From a virus: 56,016 nt of DNA. The stretch is from IMG/VR virus record IMGVR_UViG_3300012925_000002. The stretch is one strand, 5' to 3'. Of the stretch, positions 20,464-42,890 are shown in pieces; position 1 is the stretch's first letter; every line of letters begins with the position of its first letter. Made by a program: the position numbers and the translations under genes. Below the pieces are notes generated by a model that saw nothing but the letters and a program-made list of their open reading frames with translations, was not told where the DNA came from and searched no databases.

Positions 20464-20499
20464 TGCTGATCCTCTCAAGCCACGTTCAAATCGATCATT

Positions 20500-20633
20500 G
20501 AAGGCTGGTTCAATCCGACACGGAACAAACTGCTTCTGGTTTGCGATCACCTGGGCAGGGCGTTCGCTGATGCCTGACTTCTCCACTGCTGAAGCGCCGG
20601 CAGTGCCGCGCTGAATCAAACCTTTCCCTCACC
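20500..20633 (+). repeat. Bipartite junction repeat, copy A (5' and 3' halves contiguous)
   Basis: ~85% identical to 22338..22471. Flanked by exact 12-nt direct repeats TCAAATCGATCA (20486-20497 and 20634-20645). Confidence 0.85.
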
Positions 20634-20667
20634 TCAAATCGATCACCTAGAAAAAGGAACCTAAAAC

Positions 20668-21438
20668 ATGCCGCAGATTGATCCGAAATTCACCTTCTGG
20701 TTCGGTATCTGGACCAACCTTCTTGTCTTCATTGCCGGCTACGGCATCGATCATGCTCCAACGATCATTCAGCAGTACGCACCCTCCGTGCAGTGGGTGG
20801 TCGGGATGATTGCACAAGCCAATGGCGTGATCCTGACGGCGCTGATCGGCATCTCCTCGAGCAAGGTGGGACCGCTGGTCAGTGTGCCGGCGAGCGCCAT
20901 CAAGCCGGCCGTCATCCTCGCGATCCTGCTCGGCGGCATGTTCGCCTTTCCGGGCGACGCTTCCGCGGAGATCCGGCTGAAGCCGCTCATCGCTACCGCG
21001 TCGGCGGTACCCCGCACGGATCCGCTGACGAAGTTCATGGGCGATCTCGCCGCGATCAAAAAGGAAGTGGTCGACGGCATCGTTGCCGACTTCAACGCGG
21101 CGGACGCCGACGCGGCAACGCTGACGAATGCCAGCGACCCGACCAGCTTCAGCGATCCGATCAGCCATGCCTGCTACCCGGCCGCGGTCAAATTTCTGCT
21201 ATCGCTGCCGACGGCGTCCGCTCCAACCGGCCAGTTCATCCTGGTGCAGCTGTTCCAGAAGAAGCGTGACTTCGTAGCCCAGATCAAGGCGGGGCTGCCG
21301 GTCTATCTTAAGCTCGGCTGCGCGCCATTGTTGGGCGATGAGGCTGCGATCTTCGCCAAGCTGATGGGGCTGGTCGGCGTCAAGGTCGGGCTCGATGCCT
21401 TGGCGCCGGGGCTTGGGCTCGCGATGCCGATACTGTAG
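20668..21438 (+). CDS. Membrane protein (3 N-terminal TM segments), holin-region candidate
   Basis: Hydrophobic segments FWFGIWTNLLVFIAGYGI, WVVGMIAQANGVILTALIGI, IKPAVILAILLGGMFAF. Confidence 0.6.
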   Translation: MPQIDPKFTFWFGIWTNLLVFIAGYGIDHAPTIIQQYAPSVQWVVGMIAQANGVILTALIGISSSKVGPLVSVPASAIKPAVILAILLGGMFAFPGDASAEIRLKPLIATASAVPRTDPLTKFMGDLAAIKKEVVDGIVADFNAADADAATLTNASDPTSFSDPISHACYPAAVKFLLSLPTASAPTGQFILVQLFQKKRDFVAQIKAGLPVYLKLGCAPLLGDEAAIFAKLMGLVGVKVGLDALAPGLGLAMPIL

Positions 21439-21454
21439 CCGGCTGGCCCCGCCG

Positions 21455-21814
21455 ATGCCCGACAGCATGCATGAGGTGAGCCGCTCGATCGGCTCGCTCG
21501 AGGCCTCGGTCACCAATTTGACCGAGACCTGGCAGCGGCAGGACCGCGAAGCCACGGAAGGCCGAAGGCGGCTCCATGAGAAAATGGATGGCCTGAAATC
21601 GCAACAGGAGGCGCTCGCTTCAACCGTTGCGCTACAGACCAAAAAGCTTGCGGAGGTCGAGCCGGCGATCAAGCGTTTCGAGGCGGAACGACAGCGGCAG
21701 GCGGGTGCCCGCTCGCTTGCCAAACTGCTGTGGGGTGGTGTCCTCGCCTTCGCGGCCGGGCTTGGTTACATCGCGCACGAGCTGATGGTCATCCTCTGGC
21801 CGCCGAAGCACTGA
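21455..21814 (+). CDS. Coiled-coil protein with C-terminal TM anchor (DUF1515-like by eye)
   Basis: ..LLWGGVLAFAAGLGYIAHELMVILW at the C-terminus. Heptad-like middle region. Confidence 0.5.
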   Translation: MPDSMHEVSRSIGSLEASVTNLTETWQRQDREATEGRRRLHEKMDGLKSQQEALASTVALQTKKLAEVEPAIKRFEAERQRQAGARSLAKLLWGGVLAFAAGLGYIAHELMVILWPPKH

Positions 21815-22329
21815 TGATGGAACCTCGCAAACTGGCTCTCACGCTGCTCGTGACACTCGCGCTCGGCGCCGTCGCATTTGTCGTCGAAACGTTGGTCGAT
21901 CGCTTCCGGCCAAACATGGGCCTGGTCGGGCGGTTCTTCATCATGCTGATGCTCGTGCTTGTTGTCGGGCTCGCTGCGATCGGGCTGGCGCACGCCCATG
22001 ACGAAGGACAATGGGGCAAATCGGATCCGGCCGTGCGTGATTGGTATCAGGGCCTGATGCAGCCGGACAATCCCAGCGTCTCTTGCTGCGGTGAAGCGGA
22101 CGCCTATTGGGCGGACGAGATCCATATCCGGGACGGCAAAACCTACGTCACCATCACGGATCCGCGCGACGATGCGCCGCTGCATCGACCGCATGTCGAA
22201 AACGGCACCGAGATCGAGATCCCGGACCACAAGTTGAAATGGGACCGGGGGAATCCGACCGGGCATGGCGTGCTGTTCTTGAGCCGGGGGCTTTACGTTT
22301 ATTGCTACGTGCAGCCGGGTGGGGTGTGA
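21814..22329 (+). CDS. Membrane protein with periplasmic Cys-containing domain
   Basis: TGATG coupling. Two N-terminal hydrophobic segments. ..SCCGEADAYWADE... Confidence 0.55.
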   Translation: MMEPRKLALTLLVTLALGAVAFVVETLVDRFRPNMGLVGRFFIMLMLVLVVGLAAIGLAHAHDEGQWGKSDPAVRDWYQGLMQPDNPSVSCCGEADAYWADEIHIRDGKTYVTITDPRDDAPLHRPHVENGTEIEIPDHKLKWDRGNPTGHGVLFLSRGLYVYCYVQPGGV

Positions 22330-22337
22330 GGTCGGAA

Positions 22338-22471
22338 GAAGGCTTGATTCAATCGGACACGGAGCAAGCTGCTTCTGGTTTGCGATCACCTGCGCAGCGC
22401 ATTCGCTGATGCCTGACTTCTCCGCTGCCGAAGCATCGAAGGTGCCGCGCTGAATCATATTCTTCCTCACC
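22338..22471 (+). repeat. Bipartite junction repeat, copy B (halves contiguous)
   Basis: 5' half 22338-22392 and 3' half 22410-22471. Aligns to copy A without internal indels. Confidence 0.85.
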
Positions 22472-22539
22472 GCACCATCATCATCGGCGCCCGCACCCAA
22501 TACGTCGTCAAAGTCTCCCCGGAAGACTACGACTTCCTG

Positions 22540-22869
22540 ATGCAGTGGAAGTGGACCTATGCCGTGTCCCATCCAATGCATGGCGGCCTGGTCTATGCCC
22601 GACGATCAATCCGCCAAGGCGACCAGAACGTCACGGTCCTGATGCATCGGGTCATCATCACCGAACGGATGGGGCTACCGCGACCCTCCGACAAACACTT
22701 CGTCGATCACGACAACGGCGCCAGCCTCGACAACCGCCGCGTCAACGATCGAGGCCGGGCCCAGCTCGCCTGGCTCACGGCCAAAGAGAACCGTGCCAAG
22801 CAATACGGCATCCGCGCAACCCCGGTAGTTCCGGCGTTCCGGGGCGTGATGAGCGATATCCCGTTTTGA
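22540..22869 (+). CDS. HNH (HNH_3-type) homing-endonuclease-like protein; true start probably upstream and non-canonical
   Basis: ..HRVIITERMG..FVDHDNGASLDNRRVN.. HNH motif. The frame is open from 22417 with family-like sequence before the first ATG. Confidence 0.7.
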   Translation: MQWKWTYAVSHPMHGGLVYARRSIRQGDQNVTVLMHRVIITERMGLPRPSDKHFVDHDNGASLDNRRVNDRGRAQLAWLTAKENRAKQYGIRATPVVPAFRGVMSDIPF

Positions 22870-22920
22870 GAGAAACCGCGCCGGCCGGATGCCGGCAATC
22901 CCGCAAGAGGAAGAACCACC

Positions 22921-23253
22921 ATGCCACTCGCTGCAACTGAGGCCTCGATCGAGGCCGAACTGCAAACCAAGGGCCTCAATGCCCCACGCCTCACGCCCAC
23001 GCTGATCGATGCTGCGATCGTGTCGGAGGCCTATCACGTCTTTCCGGGCACCACGATGACGGTCTGTGCGCTGACCTTGCGCAATGGTTTCATCGTTCTC
23101 GGAGAAAGTGCCGCGGCTAGCTACGCCAACTTCGATGAGTCGATCGGCCGGCGCATCGCCCGCGACAATGCCCGGAACAAGATTTGGGCGCTGGAGGGAT
23201 ATTTGCTGCGCGAGCGGCTTTCGGCCGACAAACGCCTGGAACAGGGCTGGTAG
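22921..23253 (+). CDS. N4 gp49 / Sf6 gp66 family protein
   Basis: ..TMTVCALTLRNGFIVLGESAAASYANFDESIGRRIARDNARNKIWALEGYLL.. matches the family pattern from memory. Confidence 0.7.
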   Translation: MPLAATEASIEAELQTKGLNAPRLTPTLIDAAIVSEAYHVFPGTTMTVCALTLRNGFIVLGESAAASYANFDESIGRRIARDNARNKIWALEGYLLRERLSADKRLEQGW

Positions 23254-23329
23254 ATTCCGAAAACCGCACCCGGGAACTGCTCCCCGGAGCGGAACCTTGC
23301 GGTCGAATTAGAACCCCGATCGCCCTTGA

Positions 23330-23362
23330 CCCGCTGTCCTTAGCCGGACGGCGGGTCTTTTT
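23330..23362 (+). terminator. Intrinsic terminator ending the late operon
   Basis: CCCGCTGTCC-ttagcc-GGACGGCGGG (10-bp stem, one G-U) followed by TCTTTTT. Confidence 0.75.
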
Positions 23363-23390
23363 GTCAGCGTGCGGACAGAATGCGAACGGG

Positions 23391-23409
23391 TCTGGGATTT
23401 ATTCTGGGA
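23391..23409 (+). promoter_or_regulatory. Candidate integrase arm-type sites (P arm): TCTGGGA x2, 12-nt register
   Basis: TCTGGGAtttatTCTGGGA. The same pair with the same spacing occurs at 23645-23663 on the other side of the core. Confidence 0.5.
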
Positions 23410-23536
23410 CTTTGCGTCCGCTAGCGCGGTGTTACGTCCGCTTTGATCCCGTTGCGTTCGCGGCGAGGGGTGATTTCCTCCAAGGCCGAAAACGAACGAA
23501 AACCCAACAAAATCAACATTTGATGATGATTTCCTC

Positions 23537-23582
23537 TGGCGCACTCGGAGAGATTCGAACTCCCGACCCTCGGAATCGAAAG
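23537..23582 (-). other. attP core: 3' fragment of a tRNA gene (T-arm, acceptor 3' strand, CCA)
   Basis: The minus strand reads ..GGGAGTTCGAATCTCTCCGAGTGCGCCA. No matching 5' acceptor strand or D-arm, so not a full tRNA. A possible anticodon loop TTTCGAT would imply Arg-UCG (weak). Confidence 0.7.
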
Positions 23583-23600
23583 ACGGGGGTCGTGTAGGAT

Positions 23601-24758
23601 TTACGCTTTGTCCTTCAATGGCTTGGCATCCGGCAGAGTTCCGCTCTGGGATTTTTTCTGGGATTCCACGCTTTCCATGCCAGCGCGCAGATCGGCGAAA
23701 GTGGTATCGGTATAGAACATCGCGGTCGTTCTGATCTCGGTGTGCCGCAATAGCGTCTGCACGAGCTTCAGGTTACCCGTGGCGCGCAGGGTGCGCTGGC
23801 CTGTCGTGTGACGCGTATCGTGCAAGCGCGCATCCACGCCCGCCTTGGCCCATTTGCGGCGCCGGTTGGTGCCGATGCCATAATAGGTCATCGGGTAGCG
23901 TTGGCCCTTGATGAACTTGCGGTCGGTCTTCGGGCAGCGCCTGGTGCGCTGGGCAACGAAGGTAAACACCCAAAGCTTGTCGTGGCCGCGCAGGCGCCAA
24001 AGGATTTCATAGGCCCGCATGGTCAGCGGCAGAATGGCCGGCACGCCGCCTTTGCCGACGATCCGGATGATACGCTGATCAAAATCCACCTGCGGCCACG
24101 TCAGAAGCATTTCCTTTCGCCGCAGGCCCATGATCTCGGCAAATTCCCGAAGCCCGGCGAATTCGCGGCTCTCGACGGCGTCGAGTATGGCATCTTCCGC
24201 AGGGGTAATCTCGCGAACCGGCTGCTTGCGTTCGGGGAGAAAGTGCTCTTTCCAGTCCGGTTCCTTCAGGATCGTGACCGACCATGCCTTGCGCGCCTTG
24301 TTCATGACGCGGCGCAAGAGTGATGGAACGGTCTTGTTGACCGTGCGGTTGCCGATCGGTCGATAAAGCTGGGTGCCCTTGGCGTCCCGGCCGGCGCGCA
24401 TGACGCCTTTCCTGCGGGCCTCGACGGCCGCGGAGACCATATCGTCGTTGATGTCGTGCAGCGCAACCTCAGGGCCGATCTGGGTTTTCAGCCAGTCCAA
24501 TGCCCGCTCCAGATCCGGGTCGCTGCCGTGCTGGCCGACCTGATCCCACCATCGATCGCACGCCGCGCCGACCGTCATCGGCCGCCGGCCGGCCTCAAGG
24601 GATTCCTTGACTAGGCGCCGGGCTTCGGCTTTGCGGCCGTCTTCGAACTCACGAGCCTTACGTTCATTCGCAAGGGACGTGGTCCCGTAAAAGCGATGAC
24701 CCTTGATCTGGAAATCGAATTGGAAATAGGGCGAACCTCGGACCCGAAAGACTGACAT
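23601..24758 (-). CDS. int: Tyrosine integrase
   Basis: 385 aa. ..HDTRHT.. and ..LLRHTEIRTTAMFY.. catalytic box. N-terminus SPYFQFDFQIKGHRFYG is an arm-binding type. Adjacent to the tRNA fragment. Confidence 0.9.
   Translation of the reverse strand: MSVFRVRGSPYFQFDFQIKGHRFYGTTSLANERKAREFEDGRKAEARRLVKESLEAGRRPMTVGAACDRWWDQVGQHGSDPDLERALDWLKTQIGPEVALHDINDDMVSAAVEARRKGVMRAGRDAKGTQLYRPIGNRTVNKTVPSLLRRVMNKARKAWSVTILKEPDWKEHFLPERKQPVREITPAEDAILDAVESREFAGLREFAEIMGLRRKEMLLTWPQVDFDQRIIRIVGKGGVPAILPLTMRAYEILWRLRGHDKLWVFTFVAQRTRRCPKTDRKFIKGQRYPMTYYGIGTNRRRKWAKAGVDARLHDTRHTTGQRTLRATGNLKLVQTLLRHTEIRTTAMFYTDTTFADLRAGMESVESQKKSQSGTLPDAKPLKDKA
23645..23663 (+). promoter_or_regulatory. Candidate integrase arm-type sites (P' arm), inside the int 3' end
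   Basis: TCTGGGAtttttTCTGGGA. Confidence 0.45.
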
Positions 24759-24994
24759 GCCACCCCCGTACGCCGGTAGAACTCGACCACGTCGGCAAGG
24801 GTACAGACGTAGTGCCGCCGCTCAAGGCCGGTTCCCTTGATATGCACCGGGAGATTTTGGGCCTCCCGGTGCCTGGTAAGCGTCTTTAAGTCCATCCGGA
24901 GTGCCTTGGCTAGCGCCGGCATCGTCAAGTGAGGGGACCCCGCAAAGGCGGCTCGGACTTCCTCGGGGATGAGATCGATGGCCGCGAAGGTCAT
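24611..24994 (-). CDS. Excisionase-like HTH protein; the frame overlaps int by 148 nt
   Basis: ATGA coupling to the upstream gene. ..MPALAKALRMDLKTLTRHREA.. is HTH-like. There is no in-frame stop before 24611. Confidence 0.45.
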   Translation of the reverse strand: MTFAAIDLIPEEVRAAFAGSPHLTMPALAKALRMDLKTLTRHREAQNLPVHIKGTGLERRHYVCTLADVVEFYRRTGVACQSFGSEVRPISNSISRSRVIAFTGPRPLRMNVRLVSSKTAAKPKPGA

Positions 24995-25470
24995 TTGCAA
25001 CCCGCCTCTATCCAAAGGGCCAACCGTCCTTCGTGCCGATACCATTCGCCTTGTGTGCGATATGTGGCAAACCGGTGGTGCAACTGTCGCTCGCGGGCGC
25101 GGCCCGGACCTTCGATGACCTTGTGCACCTTCATCCGGAGGGGCAAGCCCGTCTGTAAGCTCGCCAGCCGATGGTAAAGGTGGCTTGAAAAGCCAATCTT
25201 GATGAATTCCATGAACTGAATCACGTAAATGCCATAGAGTCGCTCTTTGTCGGGCGCGCGAGAACGCAGGACAAGGCTCGCACGCGACCAAAATTCGCCA
25301 TTTAGTGGCGCCGGGATCCTGTTGAGCAGGCGATAGTAATTGAAGTCTTCGATCGATAGGCGAAGGTGAGCGGCGGCTTGCTCGATGTTGAGCCAGTCAG
25401 CGGTTGGGTGCAGACCGATCGATTGGAGGGCAGGGCGTTCCTGACCGCTGGCAAGGGCTTGGCGGGGCAT
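24991..25470 (-). CDS. HTH + T5orf172 (MUG113/GIY-YIG-related) domain protein
   Basis: ..LNIEQAAAHLRLSIEDF.. then ..YGIYVIQFMEFIKIGFSS..LQTG..ERQLHHRFATYRTQGEWY... Confidence 0.65.
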   Translation of the reverse strand: MPRQALASGQERPALQSIGLHPTADWLNIEQAAAHLRLSIEDFNYYRLLNRIPAPLNGEFWSRASLVLRSRAPDKERLYGIYVIQFMEFIKIGFSSHLYHRLASLQTGLPLRMKVHKVIEGPGRARERQLHHRFATYRTQGEWYRHEGRLALWIEAGCK

Positions 25471-25471
25471 T

Positions 25472-25660: not shown

Positions 25661-25701
25661 GTTTCCCTCCTTCCAGCCTGCGCCAATTGGCGCAGCCTCC
25701 G

Positions 25702-26091: not shown

Positions 26092-26142
26092 ATATTCCTC
26101 TTCTGTTTATGCTTACGTGTGATCGGCGTAGTCTTCGTTGTT

Positions 26143-26430: not shown

Positions 26431-26460
26431 GGGGTTGAGGGCTTTCGGGTTTTAGGGGAA

Positions 26461-26513
26461 GATTTGGTTCAAGCGACCATCGGAGCAACCGGCCCTTGGT
26501 TTGCGATCACCTG
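26461..26513 (+). repeat. Junction repeat, 5' half, copy D (inverted relative to copy C; overlaps the DHH gene 3' end)
   Basis: ..GGTTCAAGCGACCATCGGAGCAA..TTGGTTTGCGATCACCTGG. Its complement encodes the last 16 codons and the stop of the DHH gene. Confidence 0.8.
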
Positions 26514-27395
26514 GTAGCCCGCCGCGTTGCGATGACCGCCGCCGCCGAATTTCTTGGCGATCTCGGAGACGTCAAGCCGATGATTCTCGGAGCGCAGCGA
26601 ATACTGGATCATGCCATCGCGGCGCCGGAACCAGCATGCGGTGAAGGGCGCGCCGGGAAAGCGCGATAGCAGCGCGTGAGCCATGTCGCTGGCGTAGTGA
26701 TAGGGGACGTTGACGACGGGAACCGAATGTCCGTCGATCGTGTCCATGTAGCAATCGGCCATGAACTTCCGGATGTTGGCATTGTGCGCACGGAGGATCA
26801 CGGCGCCGTCTGAGATCAAGTGCGACGTCGACTCCCGTTCGGCGAGCTTATCCCAGAGGTTGAATTCCTGCTCATAGGTGAGGAGGGCGGCAGAGAATTG
26901 CTTCGTCGCTTCGCCAAACTCGAATTTCCAGAGGTCGCGATCCTGAATTAATTCAAGGAACAGCGGAACGGTTTTTTCGGGACGGGCAAACTTCCACGCC
27001 ATCACGGCGCCGGATTGGGTCATGTCGAACCAAGCAACGATGGGCGGATCGTAGGCGTGGGCTGGATCGTATAGGTGGTTAACCAAAAACTCCGGCGTTG
27101 CCGACTGACCATTCCCGAGGTGAACGTCCCAAGGTGCGAGCTCGGCTTCGGCGGTTTTGTGGTGGTCGATCACAATGACGGATTTTGCGACCGCAGCCAG
27201 TACGCGCATCGGCTCGCGCTTAAACGAGAAATCGACGAACAAAACATTCTTGTCTCGCGCCTCCTCGCCGTCGATGGCTTCGCCGTAGATGCCGGGCACA
27301 AACCGGCAATCCGGCCAGCGCTTCCAGATCGCCCATGCTGCGCCGAAACCATCGTCACAGCCGCCGTGGTAGATGCAAATGTCTGGCTTCCACAT
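26469..27395 (-). CDS. DHH/DHHA1 family phosphoesterase
   Basis: Motifs ..YHGGCDDGFGAA.., ..VLFVDFS.., ..VIDHHKT.., ..QDRDLW.., and DHHA1 ..FGGGGHRNAAG... Confidence 0.8.
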   Translation of the reverse strand: MWKPDICIYHGGCDDGFGAAWAIWKRWPDCRFVPGIYGEAIDGEEARDKNVLFVDFSFKREPMRVLAAVAKSVIVIDHHKTAEAELAPWDVHLGNGQSATPEFLVNHLYDPAHAYDPPIVAWFDMTQSGAVMAWKFARPEKTVPLFLELIQDRDLWKFEFGEATKQFSAALLTYEQEFNLWDKLAERESTSHLISDGAVILRAHNANIRKFMADCYMDTIDGHSVPVVNVPYHYASDMAHALLSRFPGAPFTACWFRRRDGMIQYSLRSENHRLDVSEIAKKFGGGGHRNAAGYQVIANQGPVAPMVA

Positions 27396-27415
27396 ATCTC
27401 AAATTCCTCTCTGTT

Positions 27416-27470
27416 CAGGTGATCGCAAACCAGAACCAGTTTGCTCCGTATCCGATTGAATCAGGCCTTA
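27416..27470 (-). repeat. Junction repeat, 5' half, copy C (minus orientation, just upstream of the DHH gene)
   Basis: The minus strand reads AAGGCCTGATTCAATCGGATACGGAGCAAACTGGTTCTGGTTTGCGATCACCTG, then 23 nt, then the DHH ATG. Confidence 0.85.
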
Positions 27471-27682
27471 GAAGCTGCAACGCCAGTAACTCGACGCCGC
27501 TCGCATTGAAAATAGTCTTTGTACTCCCATGGCGCAGAGACTGTTGCCGCGCCCTCGGAAATAAGTTCGTCAACCCACTTGATTTCCTGCGGATTGGCCC
27601 ATTCCTCTTGAGTCAAGGTTTCCCCGCGAGTGAAGCCTTCGCGCATCTGCTCTTTTGTCATCAAGATTGGGCGTTCGTTCAT
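27461..27682 (-). CDS. Hypothetical protein
   Basis: 73 aa. Its stop codon lies inside the boundary of repeat copy C. Confidence 0.55.
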   Translation of the reverse strand: MNERPILMTKEQMREGFTRGETLTQEEWANPQEIKWVDELISEGAATVSAPWEYKDYFQCERRRVTGVAASKA

Positions 27683-27707
27683 TTCTCGCTCCCTGCTTTG
27701 ATGGGGG

Positions 27708-32601: not shown

Positions 32602-32606
32602 GGGGC

Positions 32607-33525: not shown

Positions 33526-33536
33526 ACGATAGCGCC

Positions 33537-34096: not shown

Positions 34097-34276
34097 CAAG
34101 CCTGAGAGACGCTCACCTAATTCCAGTTCGGGCGACGGCCTTGGCATCCAACAGCCCGGGTCAATGACATGGGGCGGACAGTCAAGGTCGCCAGCTCCAT
34201 CGGGAAGGGCGCGTGATCGCGCTAAATGCCCCGCCGTCGCCCGATCCCTTACACCGTTTTGCCGGAGGGCTTTTTG

Positions 34277-34948
34277 ATGGTTCACCTTGCCACTGAAGCC
34301 GCGTCGGCGCCTATCGGTCAGGCTGCAGCGGAAGATGCTTCGCCACTGGACCTGCAGCCATTCTGCAGCACGGATGAAGTCCGGCCTTACCTGATGAAGC
34401 CGTTTTCGCGGCACGGATTCACCTGGGCCACCAACGGGCATATTCTGGTTCGTGTGACACTGCGGTCCGACATTTCAGATGTCGACAAAAAGTTCAACAT
34501 CGCCGGACCGTTGCAAGACTTTGAGAGCGCATCGTTCTTTAAGCCTGAATATTTTCTGCCGCCGCCGGTGCCTGCGCCTGTTGGATGCGCCGCATGCGAC
34601 GGGCGAGGACATGAACATGATTGCCCGAGTTGTGGATGTATCTGCGGGGCCTGTGACGGCAAGGGCGAAGTTAACCCCGAAAATAACATGTCGGTATCGA
34701 TCGGCCCGACGCCTTTTAGTCTCAAGTATATCCGCCAGATTCTTTCGCTTCCCGGCATTGAGATCGAGACGCTGGCGGCTGATCAAAGCATGAAACCACT
34801 TTTCTTCCGCTTCGATGGCGGTATTGGCGCCCTGATGCCCCTTCGGTCACCGCACACTGATCATGTCGACCTCACGCGGAAATCTGATGAAGCCTCATCG
34901 CTGCCGCCTGACTTCTCCACTGCCGAAGCGCCGGCAGTGCCGCGCTGA
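34277..34948 (+). CDS. Beta-clamp (DnaN) domain-like protein with inserted CxxC zinc-ribbon
   Basis: RBS GGAGGG. ..TDEVRPYLMKPF..FTWATNGHILVRV.. (DnaN ..TRYYLNG..VATDGHRLA..). ..FSLKYIRQIL..PLFFRF..GALMPLR.. (DnaN C-terminus ..MPMRL). CAACDGRG..CPSCGCICGACDGKG. Confidence 0.55.
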   Translation: MVHLATEAASAPIGQAAAEDASPLDLQPFCSTDEVRPYLMKPFSRHGFTWATNGHILVRVTLRSDISDVDKKFNIAGPLQDFESASFFKPEYFLPPPVPAPVGCAACDGRGHEHDCPSCGCICGACDGKGEVNPENNMSVSIGPTPFSLKYIRQILSLPGIEIETLAADQSMKPLFFRFDGGIGALMPLRSPHTDHVDLTRKSDEASSLPPDFSTAEAPAVPR

Positions 34949-34990
34949 ATCAAATCTGGTTTCTTAGTTTCCACGCGTATCCGCGTTCCA
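34901..34990 (+). repeat. Junction repeat, orphan 3' half, copy F'
   Basis: CTGCCGCCTGACTTCTCCACTGCCGAAGCGCCGGCAGTGCCGCGCTGAATCAAATCTGGTTT... It supplies the last ~16 codons and the stop of the preceding gene. Confidence 0.85.
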
Positions 34991-35317: not shown

Positions 35318-36675
35318 ACCCCTTCCTCGCAGCGGGCGGCTTGTTGATGCCGGGCTCCCCGCGCCCGAAGCATCATCCGTTCGCAAATCTGTTCCCGATG
35401 CTGGCGGATGAACGTCGGGAGAGTTTCCGCGCCTCTCTTGCCGAAGGCCAAAACCACCCGATCATTCTGCACAAGGGTTTCGTCCTCGACGGCCGCAATC
35501 GCGAGCGCGAACTCGCCGAACTCGGAAAGCCGGTTGCCTACGCGATTTTTACAGGGACCGACGAATTCGCGCTCAAATTTGTCATCGCCGAAAATCTTGA
35601 GCGGCGCGATCTCACCGACAAGCAACGGGCGTTGATCGCGGCCTCGATCGCAACGCTAAGGCTTGGTGCCAATCAACATTCGCGGCAGGCTGCGCCAATT
35701 GGCGGACCCTCGCTTGATTTCGGAGAGCAAGATCAGCACGCGACGGAGGAAAGATCGTCGCCGCTTTCCCTGGGCGAAGCCTCGACGCTGATGAATGTGC
35801 CGCGCCGCAGCGTCGAACGTGCCGCGGTCATCGAAGCTGGCGCCACGCCAGAATTGATGGAGGCGGTCAGGACCGGGCCCGTGTCGCTCGATACGGGGGC
35901 TGCGTTGGCGCGCCTTCCATCGGAAGAGCAGAAGGCCATTCTCGACGCGCTCCCCCGCGATGAGGCCGGCAAACTCACGGCGGAAGCCAAGAAAGAAATC
36001 CGTAAAGCCGCGAAGGAGGTCCGCGTCGAGGACCAGGCCGAGAAAAAGCGCAAGCGCGGCGAGCGGGAGCAAAAGCTCGGCGCCAAAATCCGCGCACTGC
36101 CGGATATCAAGGCCGGCCTGATCCTCTCGGACTTCGAATGGCACTTCAAGGTGCGCTCGGAGGAAACCGGGATGGATCGCCACGCCTCCAACCACTACGT
36201 CACGGCCAAGGAAGCCTCGACGCCGGAAGCGATCGTCGAACGCCAGCGCGAGCGCATGAGCATCGCCGCGGAAGATTGTATCCATCTGATGTGGTGTCCG
36301 GCGTCGTTTTCGGCGATCGCTCACAAGGTGATGGAGCTACAGGGTTTTACCTACGTCTCGCAATTCTGCTGGATCAAGCCTTCGATCGGCACAGGTTTTT
36401 GGGTGCGGGACAGGCATGAACTGCTGTTGATCGGCGTCAAGGGCAAGGTGCCGTGCCCCGCGATGGGCGACCAATTCGATTCAGCGATCGAGGCACCCAA
36501 GGGTGATCATTCCGAGAAGCCGGATTTCCAGTACGAAATCGCGGAACATTATTTCCCAAGCCTGCCCAAGGTCGAGTTGAACGCGCGGCGGGCGCGGGAT
36601 GGATGGATATCGTGGGGGAACGAAGCGCCGGAGCAACCGTCGCTCGAAATCGACAGTGAGGAGCAAGCCGCATGA
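35314..36675 (+). CDS. ParB-like N-domain fused to an MT-A70 family methyltransferase domain (motif IV reads DFEW)
   Basis: ..HPIILHKGFVLDGRNRE.. (ParB N). ..LILSDFEWHF..NHYVT..GFWVRDRHELLLIG..DHSEKPD..VELNARR..GWISWGNE.. (MT-A70). Confidence 0.8.
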   Translation: MNPFLAAGGLLMPGSPRPKHHPFANLFPMLADERRESFRASLAEGQNHPIILHKGFVLDGRNRERELAELGKPVAYAIFTGTDEFALKFVIAENLERRDLTDKQRALIAASIATLRLGANQHSRQAAPIGGPSLDFGEQDQHATEERSSPLSLGEASTLMNVPRRSVERAAVIEAGATPELMEAVRTGPVSLDTGAALARLPSEEQKAILDALPRDEAGKLTAEAKKEIRKAAKEVRVEDQAEKKRKRGEREQKLGAKIRALPDIKAGLILSDFEWHFKVRSEETGMDRHASNHYVTAKEASTPEAIVERQRERMSIAAEDCIHLMWCPASFSAIAHKVMELQGFTYVSQFCWIKPSIGTGFWVRDRHELLLIGVKGKVPCPAMGDQFDSAIEAPKGDHSEKPDFQYEIAEHYFPSLPKVELNARRARDGWISWGNEAPEQPSLEIDSEEQAA

Positions 36676-36935: not shown

Positions 36936-36950
36936 GGAAAAGGATTTCAC

Positions 36951-37672: not shown

Positions 37673-38445
37673 TGAAGCCGCAAAAACAGCTCTTCCGCCA
37701 TCGCCCCACCGAGGGCATCTTCGGCGACTGCCATCGGACCGCAATCGCCTGCGTGCTCGATATGGACGCCAAGGACGTGCCGCACTTCATGGACGCTTCG
37801 GCGTATGAGAAGGGTGGCGGTAGCATCGCGCAGGCAAAACTTGAGGCGTGGCTGAACGCGCGCGGCATCGTCAGCATCGCGATCGCCTATCCCGCGGCGG
37901 ATGTAGAAGTTGAGCAAATTCTCAACTCGGTGATGTGGTGCAACCCTGCGACGAAGCCCGTGTTCATTCTTTCCGGGCTATCGAAGATCGGTGCCAACCA
38001 TTGCGTGGTGTGCTGTGACGGCGAGGTGGTCTGCGATCCGACCTTGGACGAACCCGGCATCATCGGCCCCTGCGATGACGGGTTCTACTGGCTGACGTTC
38101 TTCGGCTCGCTCGCCGCAACCGACAGCCCGGCAAAGCACAAGCGCGATGCAGCGGGAAAACGCGACCGGCTGGATGTTGCGGCTTCGCTGTTGTCGGGTG
38201 ATCTGATCGCCGCCGGCATGCCGAAGGGGTCGTTCTACATCACGATCGGGGACGGGGAATTGCACGTCTATGCGAAAGCGGAAGCCTTGGCAGGGGCAGC
38301 AAGAGAACGGGTGACGATGCCTTGCGTCTATCCGGTTGAGTGGCATGTGCAGCAGGGCAGGGAAGTGCTGGTTCAAGCTGTCTCTGCCGTTGTGGAGACG
38401 GAATGCGATCACCCTGGCGGCGTGGAGGTGGAGGTGGTTGAATGA
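37672..38445 (+). CDS. Hypothetical protein; possible Cys/His peptidase-like fold
   Basis: TGATG coupling. ..FGDCHRTAIACVL.. and ..GANHCVVC... The functional idea is weak. Confidence 0.5.
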   Translation: MKPQKQLFRHRPTEGIFGDCHRTAIACVLDMDAKDVPHFMDASAYEKGGGSIAQAKLEAWLNARGIVSIAIAYPAADVEVEQILNSVMWCNPATKPVFILSGLSKIGANHCVVCCDGEVVCDPTLDEPGIIGPCDDGFYWLTFFGSLAATDSPAKHKRDAAGKRDRLDVAASLLSGDLIAAGMPKGSFYITIGDGELHVYAKAEALAGAARERVTMPCVYPVEWHVQQGREVLVQAVSAVVETECDHPGGVEVEVVE

Positions 38446-38690
38446 AGATGCCTCAAATCATCAGCATTACCGGGCCGCTACCTCGCGAGCTCGCCAATGC
38501 AGTCTCTTCGGCAATTCACTTCGCGCTTCAGCGCGGCATGGCGATCGATGAAGCTTGCTGCGTCGTCGCCGGCATCGCTGCCGATTACGCCCGTGTCGAA
38601 TATGGAGATGAGTATCTCGATAACCTCGCGGCCGTGATCAAGGCCCATGCAGGCAGGCCGCTTCCGCGGGGCGCGAAAGGCAAAAAGTGA
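38442..38690 (+). CDS. Hypothetical protein
   Basis: 82 aa. ATGA coupling. Confidence 0.5.
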   Translation: MKMPQIISITGPLPRELANAVSSAIHFALQRGMAIDEACCVVAGIAADYARVEYGDEYLDNLAAVIKAHAGRPLPRGAKGKK

Positions 38691-39220: not shown

Positions 39221-39221
39221 G

Positions 39222-41930
39222 TGGCCGACAATGGACGCGGCGGTCAGCAACGATGGCGAGCAGCCGGAAACGTTCTTCGCGCGCCGGCAGGAAATCAAGG
39301 CGAAGGGCATCAACGGCAACGGCATGGGGACGCCACTCGCGATAGCGGCGAAGGCTTGGCCGACTCCGTCGGCGAAGCTTGGGGACGATCGGAGGGGTTT
39401 TCCGTCGCCGGAATTGGCGGCGGCGCGGATCAAGAGCGGTCGCAGCAATCTCGACGATGCCGTGTCGAACTGGCCAACTCCGACCTCACGCGACTGGAAG
39501 GATACCGGCAATCTGGCGAACGTGCCGGAGAACGGCCTTCTGGGCCGGGTTGCGGCGAACTGGTCCACCCCGAGGGCGACGGACGGCGAGAAGGGCGGAC
39601 CGAACCAGAGCTTTGGAGCGGGCGGGACGCCGCTGCCGGCGCAAGCGATGCAATGGTCAACGCCGACGGTCAACGGCAACACCAACCGCAAGGGATCGTC
39701 GCCGACTTCGCAGGACGGTCTGAGGACGCCAGGCGGTCGACCGCTTTTCCCTCCCGGCCCATCCGATCTATCCGGTTGGCGGGGTGCCCTCGAAAGAGCG
39801 CCGGAGCTTGAACCCGCTTTTCGTCGAGTGGCTGATGGGCTGGCCTCCCGGCTGGACGTTGCTCGCGTGGACCGACTTCGCATGCTCGGCAACGGCGTTG
39901 TCCCGCTGGAAGCAGCGTATGCGATCCGAACTCTCTGGGCTCGGTTCGGGATGCAATCCATGACCGCAACAGCCCGCGCCACCTCTCAGCCCGAAACCTT
40001 CTACTTCGACCGCGAGCGTTCGCCCGGCGTCACTATCACGCTGCCGTCGATCGATGTCGACGAAGACCGCAACCAGTACCTGCGCGAGGGCATCGCAAAG
40101 ATGATCCGCCGCGCCCGCCGCTACATGCGCGCCAAGGATGGCGAAGGAACACGATGGACCGAAGGCTATGCCGGACGGATCATCGAATGGGCATTGCTGT
40201 TGAAGGAAGAAGGGCTGGTTCAAGCGGCCACTGCCGATGTGGGAGCGCCTATCGATCACCCGGGCAGGGAAGTTGCCGCAAGTGACGAAGACAGGGTGAT
40301 CGAAGATTCTACCAGCGATCACGCTGGCAGCTTGAATCAACCTATTACCGACGCCGAAAAAGATACTCTCGGTATAACCGATCCCATCGTCCACTCCCTG
40401 ATCGAGACCCACCGCACCCGCAAAATCTTCCCCGCCGGGCATACTTTCGCGATGACCAACCCCGTCATCAACGGCCACATGGTCACCTTAGGCACCTGCA
40501 GCTGCGGCGAAACCTTCTCCTATGCCTATGGCAGCGCCGGCCACGAACGGATGGATGCCGCGATCGAGGCGCACTGGCAGAAGTTCGATGCGACCGCAGA
40601 CAAGATCGACGGGCGCGGCGAGCCGATCGGCGGCGAGGCGCCGGCCGTCAAACCGAAACGAAAAAAGAAATCCCAACCCGACGCGATAGGCCAACCCGCG
40701 TCGATCGCGTCCGCGCCTGATAGTGCAGGCATCCACGGCGCGGACGCCCCTTCTTCCGATATCGCAGACGCGGCCCCACGCGCCATGCGATCAGAGCCCG
40801 CGCCTCACGCGCCCCCATCCGGCGCGGGCTCGACCCTTTTAGAGGATGCGCCAATTGGCGCAGGCTTGGTTGCGGCAGACATGGCGGCCGAACCACAGGA
40901 CGATTGGTCGGAGCTATTGCGGGCGGCGACGGACCTGGCGTGGCGGGAGCCGCAGCCGATCACGGAAACGCAAAAGATGCTGCTGGACTTCGGCAAGGTC
41001 TACGCGCATCCGAGGGAGGTTGAGCGTCCGGTCCTGCGATATCTGGGCGGCAAGTTCAGGCTTGCGCCTTGGATCATTTCCCATTTCCCTCCGCATCGGG
41101 TCTATGTTGAGCCATTCGGCGGCGCGGCGTCCGTTCTGCTGCGCAAGCCGCGATCGGCCGGCGAGTGCTATAACGACATCGATGGCAATTTGGTGAATCT
41201 CTTCGCCGTATTGCGGGACTTGGAGATGGCGTCCGAGCTGTGCCGGCGCCTGGTGCTGACGCCCTTTGCGCGCGACGAATACGATTCGGCATTCGAGACT
41301 ACGGAAGACCCGATAGAACGCGCGAGGCGGCTGATCGTCCGCTCCTACATGGGGCACGGCTCTTCATCTGCTATTTCCGAGAGATCGACGGGGTTTCGGG
41401 CCTCGCTCGTAAACAGGGGTGGCGCGCTGCCTGCGGGCGAGTGGCCCGGCATGCCCGGGGCCCTGCAGGCGATCACTGATCGCATTCAAGGCGTGCTGTT
41501 GGAATGCCGTCCCGCACTGCAAGTGATCGAGCGGTACGACGCTGCCGATACGCTGATTTATCTGGATCCGCCTTACGTGCAGGAAACCCGTTCGGCCAAG
41601 CGGCGCGGCGGACGCGCGTTCCACGCCTATGCCTTCGAGCTATCTGACGATGATCATGTCGCACTATTGGACCGCGTGCTGCAGGCGCGCGCGATGATCG
41701 TAATCTCGGGATATTCGAGTGCACTTTATGAAGAGAAGCTTTCCGCCTGGCGCCGCGAGGTGGTCGAGACGCACGCCGACGGCGCGCTTGATCGAACCGA
41801 AGTGCTTTGGCTCAATCCGCGGTGCGCCGAAGCCCTCGATGAACTCAATCCACCATTGTTCAACATGGCGGAATTGATCGCGGCCAATACCCCCCCCCCC
41901 CCTCGACGACAGCAACCTAGCGGAGGCTGA
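39222..41930 (+). CDS. C5-MTase C-terminal half (WPTP repeats, motif X) fused to an unknown middle region and a D12/Dam-class N6-adenine MTase
   Basis: Frame +1: ..LWPTMDA.., ..AWPTPSA.., ..NWPTPTSRDWKD.., ..RMLGNGVVP... There is no stop until 41930. C-terminus ..RYLGGKFRL..YVEPFGGAASVLL..YNDIDGNLVNLF..LIYLDPPYV... Confidence 0.7.
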   Translation, partial: WPTMDAAVSNDGEQPETFFARRQEIKAKGINGNGMGTPLAIAAKAWPTPSAKLGDDRRGFPSPELAAARIKSGRSNLDDAVSNWPTPTSRDWKDTGNLANVPENGLLGRVAANWSTPRATDGEKGGPNQSFGAGGTPLPAQAMQWSTPTVNGNTNRKGSSPTSQDGLRTPGGRPLFPPGPSDLSGWRGALERAPELEPAFRRVADGLASRLDVARVDRLRMLGNGVVPLEAAYAIRTLWARFGMQSMTATARATSQPETFYFDRERSPGVTITLPSIDVDEDRNQYLREGIAKMIRRARRYMRAKDGEGTRWTEGYAGRIIEWALLLKEEGLVQAATADVGAPIDHPGREVAASDEDRVIEDSTSDHAGSLNQPITDAEKDTLGITDPIVHSLIETHRTRKIFPAGHTFAMTNPVINGHMVTLGTCSCGETFSYAYGSAGHERMDAAIEAHWQKFDATADKIDGRGEPIGGEAPAVKPKRKKKSQPDAIGQPASIASAPDSAGIHGADAPSSDIADAAPRAMRSEPAPHAPPSGAGSTLLEDAPIGAGLVAADMAAEPQDDWSELLRAATDLAWREPQPITETQKMLLDFGKVYAHPREVERPVLRYLGGKFRLAPWIISHFPPHRVYVEPFGGAASVLLRKPRSAGECYNDIDGNLVNLFAVLRDLEMASELCRRLVLTPFARDEYDSAFETTEDPIERARRLIVRSYMGHGSSSAISERSTGFRASLVNRGGALPAGEWPGMPGALQAITDRIQGVLLECRPALQVIERYDAADTLIYLDPPYVQETRSAKRRGGRAFHAYAFELSDDDHVALLDRVLQARAMIVISGYSSALYEEKLSAWRREVVETHADGALDRTEVLWLNPRCAEALDELNPPLFNMAELIAANTPPPPRRQQPSGG
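41890..41902 (+). repeat. Homopolymeric C13 tract
   Basis: Read directly. Lies 26 nt before the MTase stop and ~20 nt upstream of the next gene's RBS. Confidence 0.9.
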
Positions 41931-41933
41931 CGC

Positions 41934-42083
41934 ATGACAAAATTCTTTTCGCCGTTCGAAACTGGACATAGGCCCATCGCAGGTTGGCGCTGGTACTGGC
42001 GCCTCCTGCGCGCATATCCCGAGATGGATCGACGGGTTGAGCATGACTGCTTCGCCGCGATGCCGGGGCTCGTCTGGGCATGA
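41934..42083 (+). CDS. Hypothetical 49-aa protein
   Basis: GGAGG lies 7 nt upstream of the ATG. ATGA overlap with the next gene. Below the ORF-track length cutoff. Confidence 0.5.
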   Translation: MTKFFSPFETGHRPIAGWRWYWRLLRAYPEMDRRVEHDCFAAMPGLVWA

Positions 42084-42292
42084 CTCAATCTACCCGCCAT
42101 CGCTGGGGCAAGCCGAACCGCCTAGCCCAAAAAACCGAGCGCGAATGCACGCGTAATTGCGGAACCATCAAGGTCACGATGCATCCGGACGGCCGTGAAG
42201 GACGGGAGCACTGGGTCGAATTCTGGAAGGACGGGGAGAAGATCGAGGGGAAGGGGACGCCGGTGTGTGAGCCGGTTGAGGTGGAAGCATGA
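42080..42292 (+). CDS. Hypothetical protein
   Basis: 70 aa, overlap-coupled. Confidence 0.5.
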   Translation: MTQSTRHRWGKPNRLAQKTERECTRNCGTIKVTMHPDGREGREHWVEFWKDGEKIEGKGTPVCEPVEVEA

Positions 42293-42507
42293 AGCTAGCC
42301 TCCGATCGCCACTTCATCATCGATGACCTCGCCAAGGTGCTGCGCAAGCCATCGGCTTCACCCACGGTAACGCCTTCAGAAGTGATTGCGATCGTGCTGA
42401 CGACAACACGGTGGAAGCCGAACCGGATTCTGGATCCAGATGATGCCGTGGTGCAGTCAATATTATCGAGTTTGACCGAGGCTGGATGGAAGATCGAGCC
42501 GTTGTGA
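42289..42507 (+). CDS. Hypothetical protein
   Basis: 72 aa. ATGA coupling. Confidence 0.5.
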   Translation: MKLASDRHFIIDDLAKVLRKPSASPTVTPSEVIAIVLTTTRWKPNRILDPDDAVVQSILSSLTEAGWKIEPL

Positions 42508-42797
42508 TGATGGAGGAAGAGAAGATGATTCAATCGGACAGGGAGCCAACTGTGGCTGGTTTGCGATCACCTGCGAGCGAGGCCGCTGCCGCGCACGATT
42601 ACGATATGTCGATCCATACTAACCCCGACGCGCGGGCGTGGGCTGCATTCTTTATGAAATGCAATCCGAATTCGAGCGTCCCGGAAGACATCATGGTCAC
42701 GTGGTTCGCCAACGCTATGATGGCGATGCATGATCATATGCGGCCCGATCTCGCGCCGGTTGTCCTGCCGGACGGATCGGCTTTTTGCCCCGCCTAG
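42507..42797 (+). CDS. Hypothetical protein lying between the split halves of junction repeat copy E
   Basis: TGATG coupling favours start 42507. Alternative start ATG 42606 (MSIHTNPD..) lies downstream of the repeat. Confidence 0.45.
   Translation: MMEEEKMIQSDREPTVAGLRSPASEAAAAHDYDMSIHTNPDARAWAAFFMKCNPNSSVPEDIMVTWFANAMMAMHDHMRPDLAPVVLPDGSAFCPA
42519..42573 (+). repeat. Junction repeat, 5' half, copy E
   Basis: GAAGATGATTCAATCGGACAGGGAGCCAACTGTGGCTGGTTTGCGATCACCTG. Confidence 0.85.
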
Positions 42798-42807
42798 AAG
42801 CGGGTCG

Positions 42808-42890
42808 AGCTGCCGCCTGACTTCTCCGCGGCCGAAGCGCCGGCAGTGCCGCGCTGAATCAAATCTGGTTCCTGTTGCGTCCCGCGTCCC
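42808..42890 (+). repeat. Junction repeat, 3' half, copy E'
   Basis: GCTGCCGCCTGACTTCTCCGCGGCCGAAGCGCCGGCAGTGCCGCGCTGAATCAAATCTGGTTCC... Shares an extended tail with copy F'. Confidence 0.85.

Follow-up and report, generated by a model that had tools for sequence, protein, structure and literature searches.

The DNA considered here, called the window, is the whole 56,016-nt stretch of IMG/VR virus record IMGVR_UViG_3300012925_000002; it matches the European Nucleotide Archive (ENA) metagenome contig ERZ27253145 k141_851944. It is a temperate tailed phage in which capsid, P22-like portal, terminase and endolysin genes (the last at 18843-19715) were identified. A leftward early operon encodes an AAA_24/Sak4-like protein and a DHH phosphoesterase, and a rightward early operon encodes a ParB-methylase, a 1079-aa multi-methylase, a GapR-like protein, a replication initiator and a NusG-like protein. 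Short repeats, called arms below, recur at gene junctions and inside genes of this phage. They share one anatomy, occur in empty and filled alleles, are read in frame as parts of proteins, and coincide with the breakpoints at which related phages are mosaic.

A sequence-only reading had described a repeat in two halves, with nine copies at six junctions, and all nine are present where they had been placed. Profiles of the 5' half and the 3' half, built from the window copies, match strongly only these nine sites in the window (nhmmer, E 3e-17 to 3e-24; next-best window matches, E > 1e-3), and a repeat search of the window also recovers the families. The list was nonetheless incomplete, since an old arm (G1) and a complete pair (G2) are also present. 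In what follows, alpha denotes the 5' half, beta the reverse complement of the 3' half, gamma those arms that form the N-termini of cargo open reading frames (ORFs), and G the old in-frame copies. The window total is five alpha and four beta arms, plus the diverged copies. The arms, their cargo and two further genes are as follows (HMM, hidden Markov model).

20486-20497 (+): direct repeat TCAAATCGATCA, left copy, directly outside A
20498-20559 (+): A left arm (alpha); nhmmer E 2.6e-20; arm HMM 20506-20554, E 1.6e-9
20562-20633 (-): A' right arm (beta); nhmmer E 8.7e-23 (20562-20629); arm HMM on the minus strand, 20619-20575
20634-20645 (+): direct repeat TCAAATCGATCA, right copy, directly outside A
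22335-22398 (+): B left arm (alpha); nhmmer E 5e-22
22401-22476 (-): B' right arm (beta); nhmmer E 5.4e-22; degenerate hairpin CGAAGGTG
22450-22869 (+): HNH_3 endonuclease reading frame; Pfam HNH_3, phrog_959
23601-24758 (-): integrase, a phage-type tyrosine recombinase, the sole recombinase seen in the ORFs scanned
26457-26518 (+): D alpha arm, inverted relative to the DHH gene; nhmmer E 3e-17
26469-27395 (-): DHH/DHHA1 phosphoesterase, cargo between C and D; phrog_4771, E 7e-87
27411-27471 (-): C alpha arm, directly 5' of DHH; nhmmer E 1.5e-20
34262-34345 (+): gamma arm, a diverged left arm; arm HMM 34277-34326, E 1.8e-8
34346-34896 (+): cargo body of the clamp/processivity-factor-like ORF 34277-34948; phrog_37414, E 1e-22; phrog_947
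34897-34972 (-): F' right arm (beta); nhmmer E 3e-24
38362-38418 (+): G1, old diverged arm; arm HMM E 3e-5; also found by the repeat search
40205-40349 (+): G2, complete empty arm pair with TGAATCA at 40333; arm HMM 40216-40263 (+), E 4e-7, and 40339-40292 (-), E 0.74
42517-42578 (+): E left arm (alpha), with ATG; nhmmer E 7e-19
42579-42806 (+): 68-aa gene, cargo of E/E', of a widespread 68-76-aa phage protein family
42807-42890 (-): E' right arm (beta) with a locus-specific tail, 5' of the GapR-like gene; nhmmer E 4e-22 (42807-42875)

The two halves had been taken for the parts of a bipartite element. Judged by their alignment, they are instead diverged versions of one arm of ~55-70 nt that is paired in inverted orientation. 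Once the 3' half is reverse-complemented, its codons line up one by one with those of the 5' half: both have a Shine-Dalgarno (SD) sequence, an xTG start and ~17-23 codons. Alpha, beta, gamma and G arms all align without indels in a single register (xTG rTT CAn ... ACT GAr ... GCn TCG GCn CCT ATC GGT CAC CCn), and one 51-nt profile detects every arm, each on the expected strand. At the outer end of the arm lies an SD-like GGAAG or GGAGG, followed by a 7-bp palindromic core, TGAWTCA, whose TGA is overlapped by the xTG start; the interior of ~17-23 codons would specify a linker-like peptide rich in Ala, Ser, Pro and Glu, and is followed by an inner box, RTCACC. The pattern of an arm end is GGRAAGATTTGRTTCA(N~30)RTCACC. 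The mutual complementarity of the outer ends noted in the sequence-only reading is real: the ends of arm pairs match (for example, GGGAAGATTTGGTTCAAGCG and GGGAAGATTTGATTC-AGCG), and the extended match reaches 18/20 nt (D against the arm called L028+, z 7.2), other pairs being weaker.

The unit built from these arms is a convergent pair, [arm→][←arm], which makes an imperfect palindrome of ~135 bp when it is empty. Only ~17 nt then separate the arms, as had been reported for A and B. Units are either empty (A, B, G2) or hold a gene or protein domain (E/E', C/D, gamma/F'). The ORF seen earlier in the ~235 nt between E and E' is the 68-aa gene. F' had been considered a half without a partner, but a diverged gamma arm at 34277-34345 is its left partner; similarly, C and D are not solitary halves but partners of each other, inverted and flanking the DHH gene. 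The methylation-type sites described at the sequence level were also found: each 5' half has a GATC and the ends have GANTC, and 8 of the 12 TGAWTCA sites in the window are inside arms. The 877 nt of arms contain nine GANTC sites against ~1.3 expected at genome density, about a sevenfold enrichment. Over the whole window, by contrast, this site, which is of the CcrM type, is too rare for the base composition (86 occurrences, with ~200 expected), and GATC is strongly enriched (510); the phage has at least two large DNA methylase genes.

Most beta arms contain a GC-rich hairpin of 8 bp, CACTGCCG-N6-CGGCAGTG, with the wobble-preserving variant CACTGCTG in A that had been pointed out before, and the hairpin is destroyed in B. 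The suggestion of a structured RNA was not supported. A search of the whole window against Rfam at the gathering score found nothing on the repeats (its only match, to mmgR, lies elsewhere), and copy A with its flanks gave 0 matches at E<=10. Six copies fold no better than shuffled sequences (z -0.17 to -1.53). Within the hairpin, 76.9% of cells pair compared to 74.2% in shuffles, and one pair is changed on both sides; the covariation is weak, and its score was reached by 19 of 500 shuffles. The hairpin is lost in 4 of 13 copies, namely window copy B, the copy of the related contig L033 and both L028 copies.

Several known kinds of element were also considered and rejected. No match to a host repetitive element or insertion sequence (IS), or to an Rfam family, was found. 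In 185,579 species genomes of GTDB, the exact two-box beta-arm pattern CCTGACTTCTC-N18-28-GCGCTGAATCA had one chance match, in an AT-rich Bacteroidales metagenome-assembled genome; in 72,556 plasmids, copy B (blastn) and the arm consensus gave nothing or chance matches only; and in 50,697 phage records, copy A gave no blastn match and the arm query gave chance-level matches only; none of the arm matches in plasmids or phages was at the terminus. Host repeats of the repetitive extragenic palindrome (REP) or bacterial interspersed mosaic element (BIME) type, Rhizobium-specific intergenic mosaic elements (RIME) and enterobacterial repetitive intergenic consensus (ERIC)-like repeats were set aside on this evidence from species genomes (exact pattern) and plasmids. 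Integron attC sites do not fit, as the ends are TGAWTCA, RYYYAAC/GTTRRRY core sites and IntI are lacking, and the phage integrase gene is not adjacent to any array. A diversity-generating retroelement is likewise rejected, the differences not being confined to A positions and the ORFs scanned showing no reverse transcriptase. Antitermination sites of the nut or ops type fail as the main explanation on account of the use of arms in both orientations and in frame, though a NusG-like gene exists. N4-type hairpin promoters would call for a virion RNA polymerase, which is lacking, and for a conserved hairpin; the motifs of alphaproteobacterial LexA or sigma-54 boxes do not fit.

The arms are closely tied to the starts and stops of genes. 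Every left arm has a strong SD sequence and a start codon that overlaps a TGA (xTGA). The A left arm has the SD-like GAAGG and CTG, followed by the ORF LVQSDTEQTASGLRSPGQGVR and a stop; the B left arm has GGAAGAAGG and TTG, followed by LIQSDTEQAASGLRSPAQRIR and a stop; and in each of A, B and C, the left arm forms a 21-codon ORF that ends just before the next feature. For C that feature is the DHH gene, whose ATG is 4 nt beyond the end of the 21-codon ORF, and the stop codon of a 73-aa ORF upstream of C lies within C's TGATTCA. Right arms, read on the plus strand, carry TGA stops in all three frames and give a CTGA stop/start overlap into the following gene. In A', for example, the TGA stops are accompanied by the hairpin CACTGCTG/CGGCAGTG and TGAATCA. 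Related phages are known here as uncultured phage contigs (loci numbered L), only about a dozen of which carry the arm family; in L006, L028, L031 and L034, the upstream ORFs terminate at the GCC-TGA of the right arm.

Arms are also found within proteins. The E arm is fused in frame to its cargo, as MIQSDREPTVAGLRSPASEAAAAH followed directly by DYDMSIHT. The D arm encodes a 10-residue extra C-terminal tail of the DHH protein, ending in QVIANQGPVAPMVA and a stop; the DHH homologues of L037-L040 and L073 end 3-8 residues past GGGHRNAAG[FY]Q, without this tail. The gamma arm of the window (GGAGGG, ATG and then MVHLATEAASAPIGQAAAEDASP) is the N-terminus of the clamp-like ORF, and other gamma copies are the N-termini of unrelated proteins. 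At the other end of the same cargo, F' on the plus strand gives the clamp-like ORF its last 15 codons and stop, in another frame. G1 read in frame is the C-terminus of a 317-aa ORF, and G2 read in frame joins two methylase domains of the 1079-aa ORF through the linker GLVQAATADVGAPIDHPGREVAASDEDRVIEDSTSDHAGSLNQPITD. A further case may be the HNH gene, whose beginning is overlapped by the outer end of B'. Its reading frame lacks any ATG, GTG or TTG ahead of the conserved VVKVSPEDYDFL and is open back through B' to the UGA-C stop of box 3, and codon differences between B and the L033 copy are mostly third-position synonymous from AAT CAT ATT onward. Together these suggest that HNH begins inside the arm, possibly at CTG 22450; readthrough and coupling, instead of a CTG start, is another possible mode of initiation. 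More generally, the translation signals of the arms are presumably put to actual use.

Comparison with related phages reveals what the arms enclose. The slot 5' of the GapR-like gene is empty in L002 and contains the 68-aa gene in the window, another ORF in L006 and a 131-aa ORF in L126. The slot 5' of a 96-aa gene and the ParB-methylase is empty in L147, where a 43-aa ORF spans the pair; it holds the clamp-like ORF in the window, a DnaQ-like exonuclease in L034 and a 73-aa ORF in L028. A third slot, inside the large methylase, is empty in the window and in L028 and is occupied in L110 by a PP-loop (PAPS-reductase-like) domain of ~290 aa, in frame. In L110 (IMGVR_UViG_3300020021_000044, 6350-7220) this domain, with an SGGxTS motif and likeness to PAPS reductase (PAPS, 3'-phosphoadenosine 5'-phosphosulfate) and DndC, lies between two methylase domains of a giant DNA-modification protein, whose window orthologue lacks it. 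B with its HNH gene is 82% identical in nucleotides to L033 from the beginning of B onward, similarity starting exactly at 22339, and the DNA upstream is unrelated. L034 lacks the whole D-DHH-C block (26431-27707), and the gamma arm that partners F' in the window heads unrelated ORFs in L006, L034, L126, L146 and L147. The idea of a recombination linker or landing pad is supported by these comparisons, in that there are four places where related phages differ exactly at the element; the association with mosaic breakpoints expected of such a linker is thus seen. In sum, the observation made by the sequence-only reading is confirmed and its interpretation is partly supported.

The cargo families are not bound to the arms. 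The 68-76-aa family has 201 homologues, most of them without any arm and with the native start M[SAGE]DYDMSIHT, and the DHH gene likewise occurs without arms in L037-L040 and L073. As a negative control, 70 loci with DHH relatives were found to contain no arm, and no arms occur in the endolysin and ParB-methylase relatives L111 and L112. The body of the 68-aa cargo is bracketed by a direct 8-mer, GCTGCCGC. The junctions between cargo and arm fall at differing positions within the arms, allele by allele, which is predicted by homologous or illegitimate exchange and not by a fixed-site recombinase. L028 also has a solo inverted beta arm between the methylase and a homologue of a 178-aa gene, at a place that in the window is taken by an 87-aa gene and lacks an arm.

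The pattern of conservation indicates that the DNA of the arms is under constraint. Arms are 91-92% identical between phages, compared to 82-84% for the adjacent gene (E' is 91% identical to both L002 and L006). F' and E' differ by two mismatches and the L034 and L002 arms by three, whereas positional counterparts differ by 10 (F' and L034) and seven (E' and L002); paralogous arms that are closer than positional counterparts fit gene conversion. The argument from concerted evolution is only partial, because the three beta arms of the L028 phage are not homogenised and because L002, L033 and L034 come from one sample and are not proven to be one genome. Conservation had been said to follow no reading frame. 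This is correct for the alpha copies, whose differences fall evenly by codon position (41/40/41), but not for the wider family, which keeps one frame without indels. Gamma arms differ at 217, 274 and 345 first, second and third codon positions, respectively, and 103 of their codon differences are synonymous; read in either of the other two frames, they show 38 and 94. Yet among independently ascertained gamma arms the 15-mer CCTATCGGTCACCCC is invariant, third positions included; from this and the even distribution in alpha copies it follows that constraint acts on DNA.

These results are best accounted for by a model in which the arms are homology arms with built-in start and stop signals, which allow genes and domains to be replaced by recombination in the manner of the promoter-early stem-loop (PeSL) cassettes discussed below; we give this model about an even chance of being right. 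The arms would act as portable homology for the phage's own recombination functions, and the swapping agent is presumably homologous recombination rather than a dedicated enzyme. Recombination genes are at hand: the window encodes the AAA_24/Sak4-like protein, relatives L107 and L146 encode ERF, and L146 also encodes YqaJ. Cargo would be replaced between co-infecting phages or prophages by double crossovers, either in the two arms or with one exchange in an arm and the other in a conserved gene next to it. A crossover between direct copies (for example, A and B) would delete or circularise the intervening block, and one between inverted copies (for example, D and C) would invert it. The left arm would equip whatever lies to its right with a ribosome-binding site, a start codon and an N-terminal extension that does no harm, or would place a short ORF ahead of it for translational coupling, and the right arm would supply three-frame TGA stops, usually a hairpin, and the CTGA overlap into the next gene. 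In-frame outcomes would be kept by selection because translation starts in the arm.

Several considerations weigh against this model. No recombination event was directly observed; what was compared are end-states in different metagenomic contigs, and only about a dozen contigs carry the arm family. Homologous recombination can explain how cargo is replaced but not how a gene first came to be flanked by arms, and neither the 12-bp direct repeat around A nor the solo inverted arm of L028 is explained by it. The high conservation of the boxes could also reflect a protein-binding or expression function. The rival explanations considered next and the recombination model are not mutually exclusive.

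The inverted-repeat ends, with a perfect 7-bp core and matches of up to ~18/20 nt, recall a miniature inverted-repeat transposable element (MITE) or, when there is cargo, a non-autonomous transposon like a mobile insertion cassette (MIC). The arms would then be terminal inverted repeats plus subterminal binding sites, the transposase would come in trans from the host or another element, and half copies would be products of decay or recombination. At ~135 bp the empty unit is within the size of a MITE (under ~500 bp), has no transposase of its own and is present in multiple copies in both orientations, and some copies are at non-orthologous sites (the solo L028 arm; C/D, absent from L034 and from DHH-bearing relatives). 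Furthermore, A is bracketed by the 12-bp TCAAATCGATCA, which occurs only twice in the window (20486 and 20634), and removing A with one copy restores a normal 52-nt intergenic spacer; this pair is possibly a target-site duplication. Some IS ends are methylation-controlled, and GANTC at the tips with a subterminal GATC is reminiscent of them. However, six of the seven units are without a flanking duplication, none of at least 7 bp being found at B, E/E', C/D, gamma/F', L002 or L033, and the predicted empty site of A has 0 exact matches in IMG/VR. No transposase domain was detected among the ORFs scanned, a subset of those in the window, leaving the phage integrase as the only recombinase. No parent IS was found, nor related ends in the plasmids and phage records searched, nor the exact beta-arm pattern in the species genomes. 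Different cargo in each slot and variable junctions are more simply explained by replacement than by repeated site-specific transposition. For the MITE-like element proposed by the sequence-only reading, the inverted ends, the non-orthologous copies in both orientations and the duplication at A speak in favour and the other points against; we consider transposition unlikely. A dedicated enzyme might instead act on the arms, making them a cassette system of temperate alphaproteobacterial phages, a counterpart of integrons and MICs that inserts genes and domains in frame. Here a nuclease or recombinase would insert promoterless genes or single domains, and a candidate is the HNH protein, whose frame may start inside B' and which travels with the arm in L033; the arm would contribute the SD sequence and start, a linker peptide, UGA-C stops that are leaky and a switch based on GANTC methylation. 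Such a system, which would provide a plug-in site for genes and domains and explain the giant modular methylase fusions, is in our judgement distinctly unlikely.

Two further explanations place the function of the arm in expression or in its product. According to one, the arm is conserved for a function of its own, acting in cis on expression (as a module for translational coupling or with a leader ORF, a site of mRNA processing or stability, or a binding or loading site for factors such as methylation-sensitive GANTC readers or the phage NusG-like protein), and the variability of the cassettes is incidental. This would account for the strong SD sequence and xTGA start of every left arm, for the upstream ORFs of 20-24 codons formed by many arms (A, B, C, L123, L129, L028+), which close at the start of the following gene or beside it, for the ATGA overlaps on both sides of the L028+ arm, and for the three-frame TGA closure of right arms, at whose GCC-TGA the four ORFs mentioned above stop. 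It would also fit the AAGGTG that B-type right arms carry in place of the hairpin, 5 nt before the CTG that opens the HNH frame, the invariance of the boxes at the nucleotide level in arms more conserved than neighbouring coding DNA, the enrichment of GANTC in arms of an otherwise depleted genome, and the presence of a NusG-like gene at 46226-46918. On the other hand, a scan with the Escherichia coli consensus predicted no sigma-70-like promoter in any copy, and no intrinsic terminator was called in any copy, the beta-arm hairpin being without a T-run. The folds resemble shuffles, the hairpin covaries only weakly and no Rfam family matches; both orientations to transcription (D, L028+) and use as a protein linker (G2, L110) are a misfit for a strand-specific site; and relatives have the same downstream genes, presumably expressed, without arms (DHH in L037; 256-aa and 139-aa genes in L111). 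We consider it unlikely that the arms are expression elements. The other possibility is a functional N-terminal peptide tag for targeting, processing or partner docking (consensus M-x-H-[RL]-[AT]-[ST]-E-x-A-S-A-P-I-G-[HQ]-P-A-x-E-[DN]-A-[SA]-P), with the empty element a gene of 36-43 aa and the DNA repeats a consequence of selection on the peptide. The 23-aa peptide does head at least a dozen unrelated proteins (clamp-like, DnaQ-like exonuclease, membrane and unknown proteins, P0121-P0131) and turns up again between protein domains, the single frame of all arm variants is unbroken by indels, and the empty elements L002 (36 aa) and L147 (43 aa) are intact ORFs ending in LMPDFSAAKASAV[SP]R and a stop. 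The third-position excess and the 103 synonymous differences of gamma arms point the same way, but this codon-position signal is modest and frame +2 has nearly as many synonymous differences. In alpha copies there is no coding bias, and a 2-nt difference in the spacer cuts the ORFs of A, B and L033 to 20-21 codons; the identical sequence serves, inverted and non-coding, as the right arm; and the cargo families function elsewhere without the peptide. The peptide is of low complexity and matches no Pfam or PHROG family; its homologues were sought with the 23-aa peptide as a tandem duplicate, and a literature search for the peptide strings found nothing relevant. A tag seems very unlikely.

Recombination between arms is most readily compared with the PeSLs, which serve as mobile regulatory cassettes in phages of the T4 type (Arbiol et al. 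2010, PMC2839356; Comeau et al. 2014, PMC4122927). PeSL motifs consist of an upstream stop, a stem-loop that acts as terminator or attenuator and a downstream SD sequence and start, together with an early promoter of the strong sigma-70 kind, and recombination through them gives rise to indels, replacements and mini-circles (PMC2839356, PMC4122927). Arms and PeSLs are both short repeats at gene junctions in the plastic parts of phage genomes, spanning the interval from an upstream stop to a downstream SD sequence and start, with a stem-loop. In both cases, the motif is where related phages differ by insertion, deletion or replacement, multi-domain genes that are split or fused lie nearby, and recombination between copies is the proposed mechanism. 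There are also clear differences. The arms have no predicted sigma-70 promoter (E. coli consensus) or terminator; they form a convergent inverted pair with cargo inside, whereas PeSLs are direct motifs; and they extend over ~17-23 codons of coding sequence, forming N-termini and interdomain linkers in frame. The phage here is temperate, 60% GC and alphaproteobacterial-looking, and the two families have no sequence similarity.

Other known elements resemble the arms in some respects. Bacterial MITEs and MICs, such as the Correia repeat enclosed elements (Correia/CREE) and MIC231, are likewise small, with terminal inverted repeats, no transposase, many copies in both orientations, passenger-gene versions and a flanking direct repeat (here at A only). 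In contrast to these, the arms have neither a parent IS or matching ends that could be found nor a consistent target duplication, were not found in host genomes by the exact pattern, and have alternative cargo in each slot with variable junctions. MITEs are rare but documented in phage genomes (PMC11602168), and MICs with passenger genes are a known class (PMC3913671). The ~135-bp palindrome in frame in an ORF (G2, L110) is also like that of a Rickettsia palindromic element (RPE), a resemblance only, in another taxon and with no sequence relation. RPEs are imperfect palindromes of ~100-150 bp that lie in frame in genes and add a hydrophilic peptide without destroying the protein; they are chromosomal and Rickettsia-specific and are not known to carry cargo or to be associated with gene starts or stops. 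Integron cassettes are promoterless ORFs with an imperfect palindromic attC of 57-141 bp, and ORF-11 of attI1 can drive cassette translation. The arms share with them a palindromic boundary, empty and filled arrangements and a short ORF at the point of insertion, but have TGAWTCA ends, no IntI, attI or Pc, cargo inside the palindrome rather than between sites, and junctions that are not fixed. Start-associated sequences (SAS) of cluster K mycobacteriophages are 13-bp motifs 5' of starts, sometimes with nearby inverted repeats (extended SAS, ESAS) and without a known association with cassette replacement; like the arms, they are phage-specific repeats at translation starts, with no sequence similarity. 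Mycobacteriophage mobile elements (MPMEs) are ultra-small mobile elements carried by phages, ~440 bp long, which have short inverted ends and a single conserved small ORF and are not known to have variable cargo. The arms differ from them in their variable cargo, and again there is no sequence similarity.

The remainder of the genome provided some additional observations. The 56-kb window has 60.5% GC, and positions 1-123 are identical to 55894-56016, which argues that it is a circular assembly; most simply, this exact 123-nt direct repeat is an assembly overlap from a circular or circularly permuted genome and not a biological terminal repeat. Megablast of the 20-43 kb region found no close relative of the window among GenBank phages. 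The sole match of this 23-kb region is 159 nt within the 1079-aa methylase ORF (39777-39935), with 92.5% identity to a gene for a cytosine methyltransferase in the Synechococcus phages Yong-M2-251 and Ssp-JY39, and looks like the trace of a recent gene-fragment exchange between very different phages. For one cargo gene, a homologue with 89% identity occurs in a Bradyrhizobium assembly; this homologue and an mmgR-like small RNA (sRNA) of alpha-rhizobial type suggest a Rhizobiales host. The sRNA-like sequence, at 47498-47586 (+), matches the Rfam suhB/mmgR family (59 bits, E 1e-9) with CCUCC-rich loops, and sits between the NusG-like gene and the terminase genes, with terminator-like hairpin-plus-T-run sites on its 5' side (~47295-47325 and 47439-47470). 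It may represent either an mmgR-like sRNA carried by the phage or a terminated leader of the late operon in the manner of lambda 6S. Just 5' of the terminator cluster and late genes, a 230-aa ORF (46226-46918, +) has a NusG N-terminal (NGN) domain (Pfam E 1.7e-6) and may encode a NusG/RfaH-like late antiterminator. A 14-bp perfect palindrome, GCGCCAATTGGCGC, occurs five times (once with one mismatch) against ~0.5 expected by chance, at 7214-7227, 25680-25693, 35692-35705, 40848-40861 and 54808-54821. These copies are partly intragenic, including in both methylase genes, are not related to the arm family, and may be bound by a protein, for example a regulator or the one with the ParB domain. 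Among the structural and tail genes there is a gene for tRNA-Ser(GCT) (15315-15406, +), and an ORF adjoining the integrase (24991-25470, -) has MUG113/T5orf172 (GIY-YIG-related) domains and would be a second putative nuclease of the accessory region, besides HNH.

The arms bear on the debate over phage mosaicism, in which special linker sequences have long been set against illegitimate joins that arise at random and are sifted by selection. Few linkers are clearly established, the PeSLs of T4-like phages being the chief case, and the arm family would be a second and structurally different example, in temperate phages of soil alphaproteobacteria. Here the same joint serves between genes and between the domains of a polyprotein-like methylase, with empty and filled alleles at several slots, and the linker question becomes directly testable at defined arms of 55-70 nt. 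For annotation, the arms explain odd N-terminal extensions, missing start codons and gaps of ~200 nt in these genomes. Their layout suggests a natural counterpart of the recombineering cassette.

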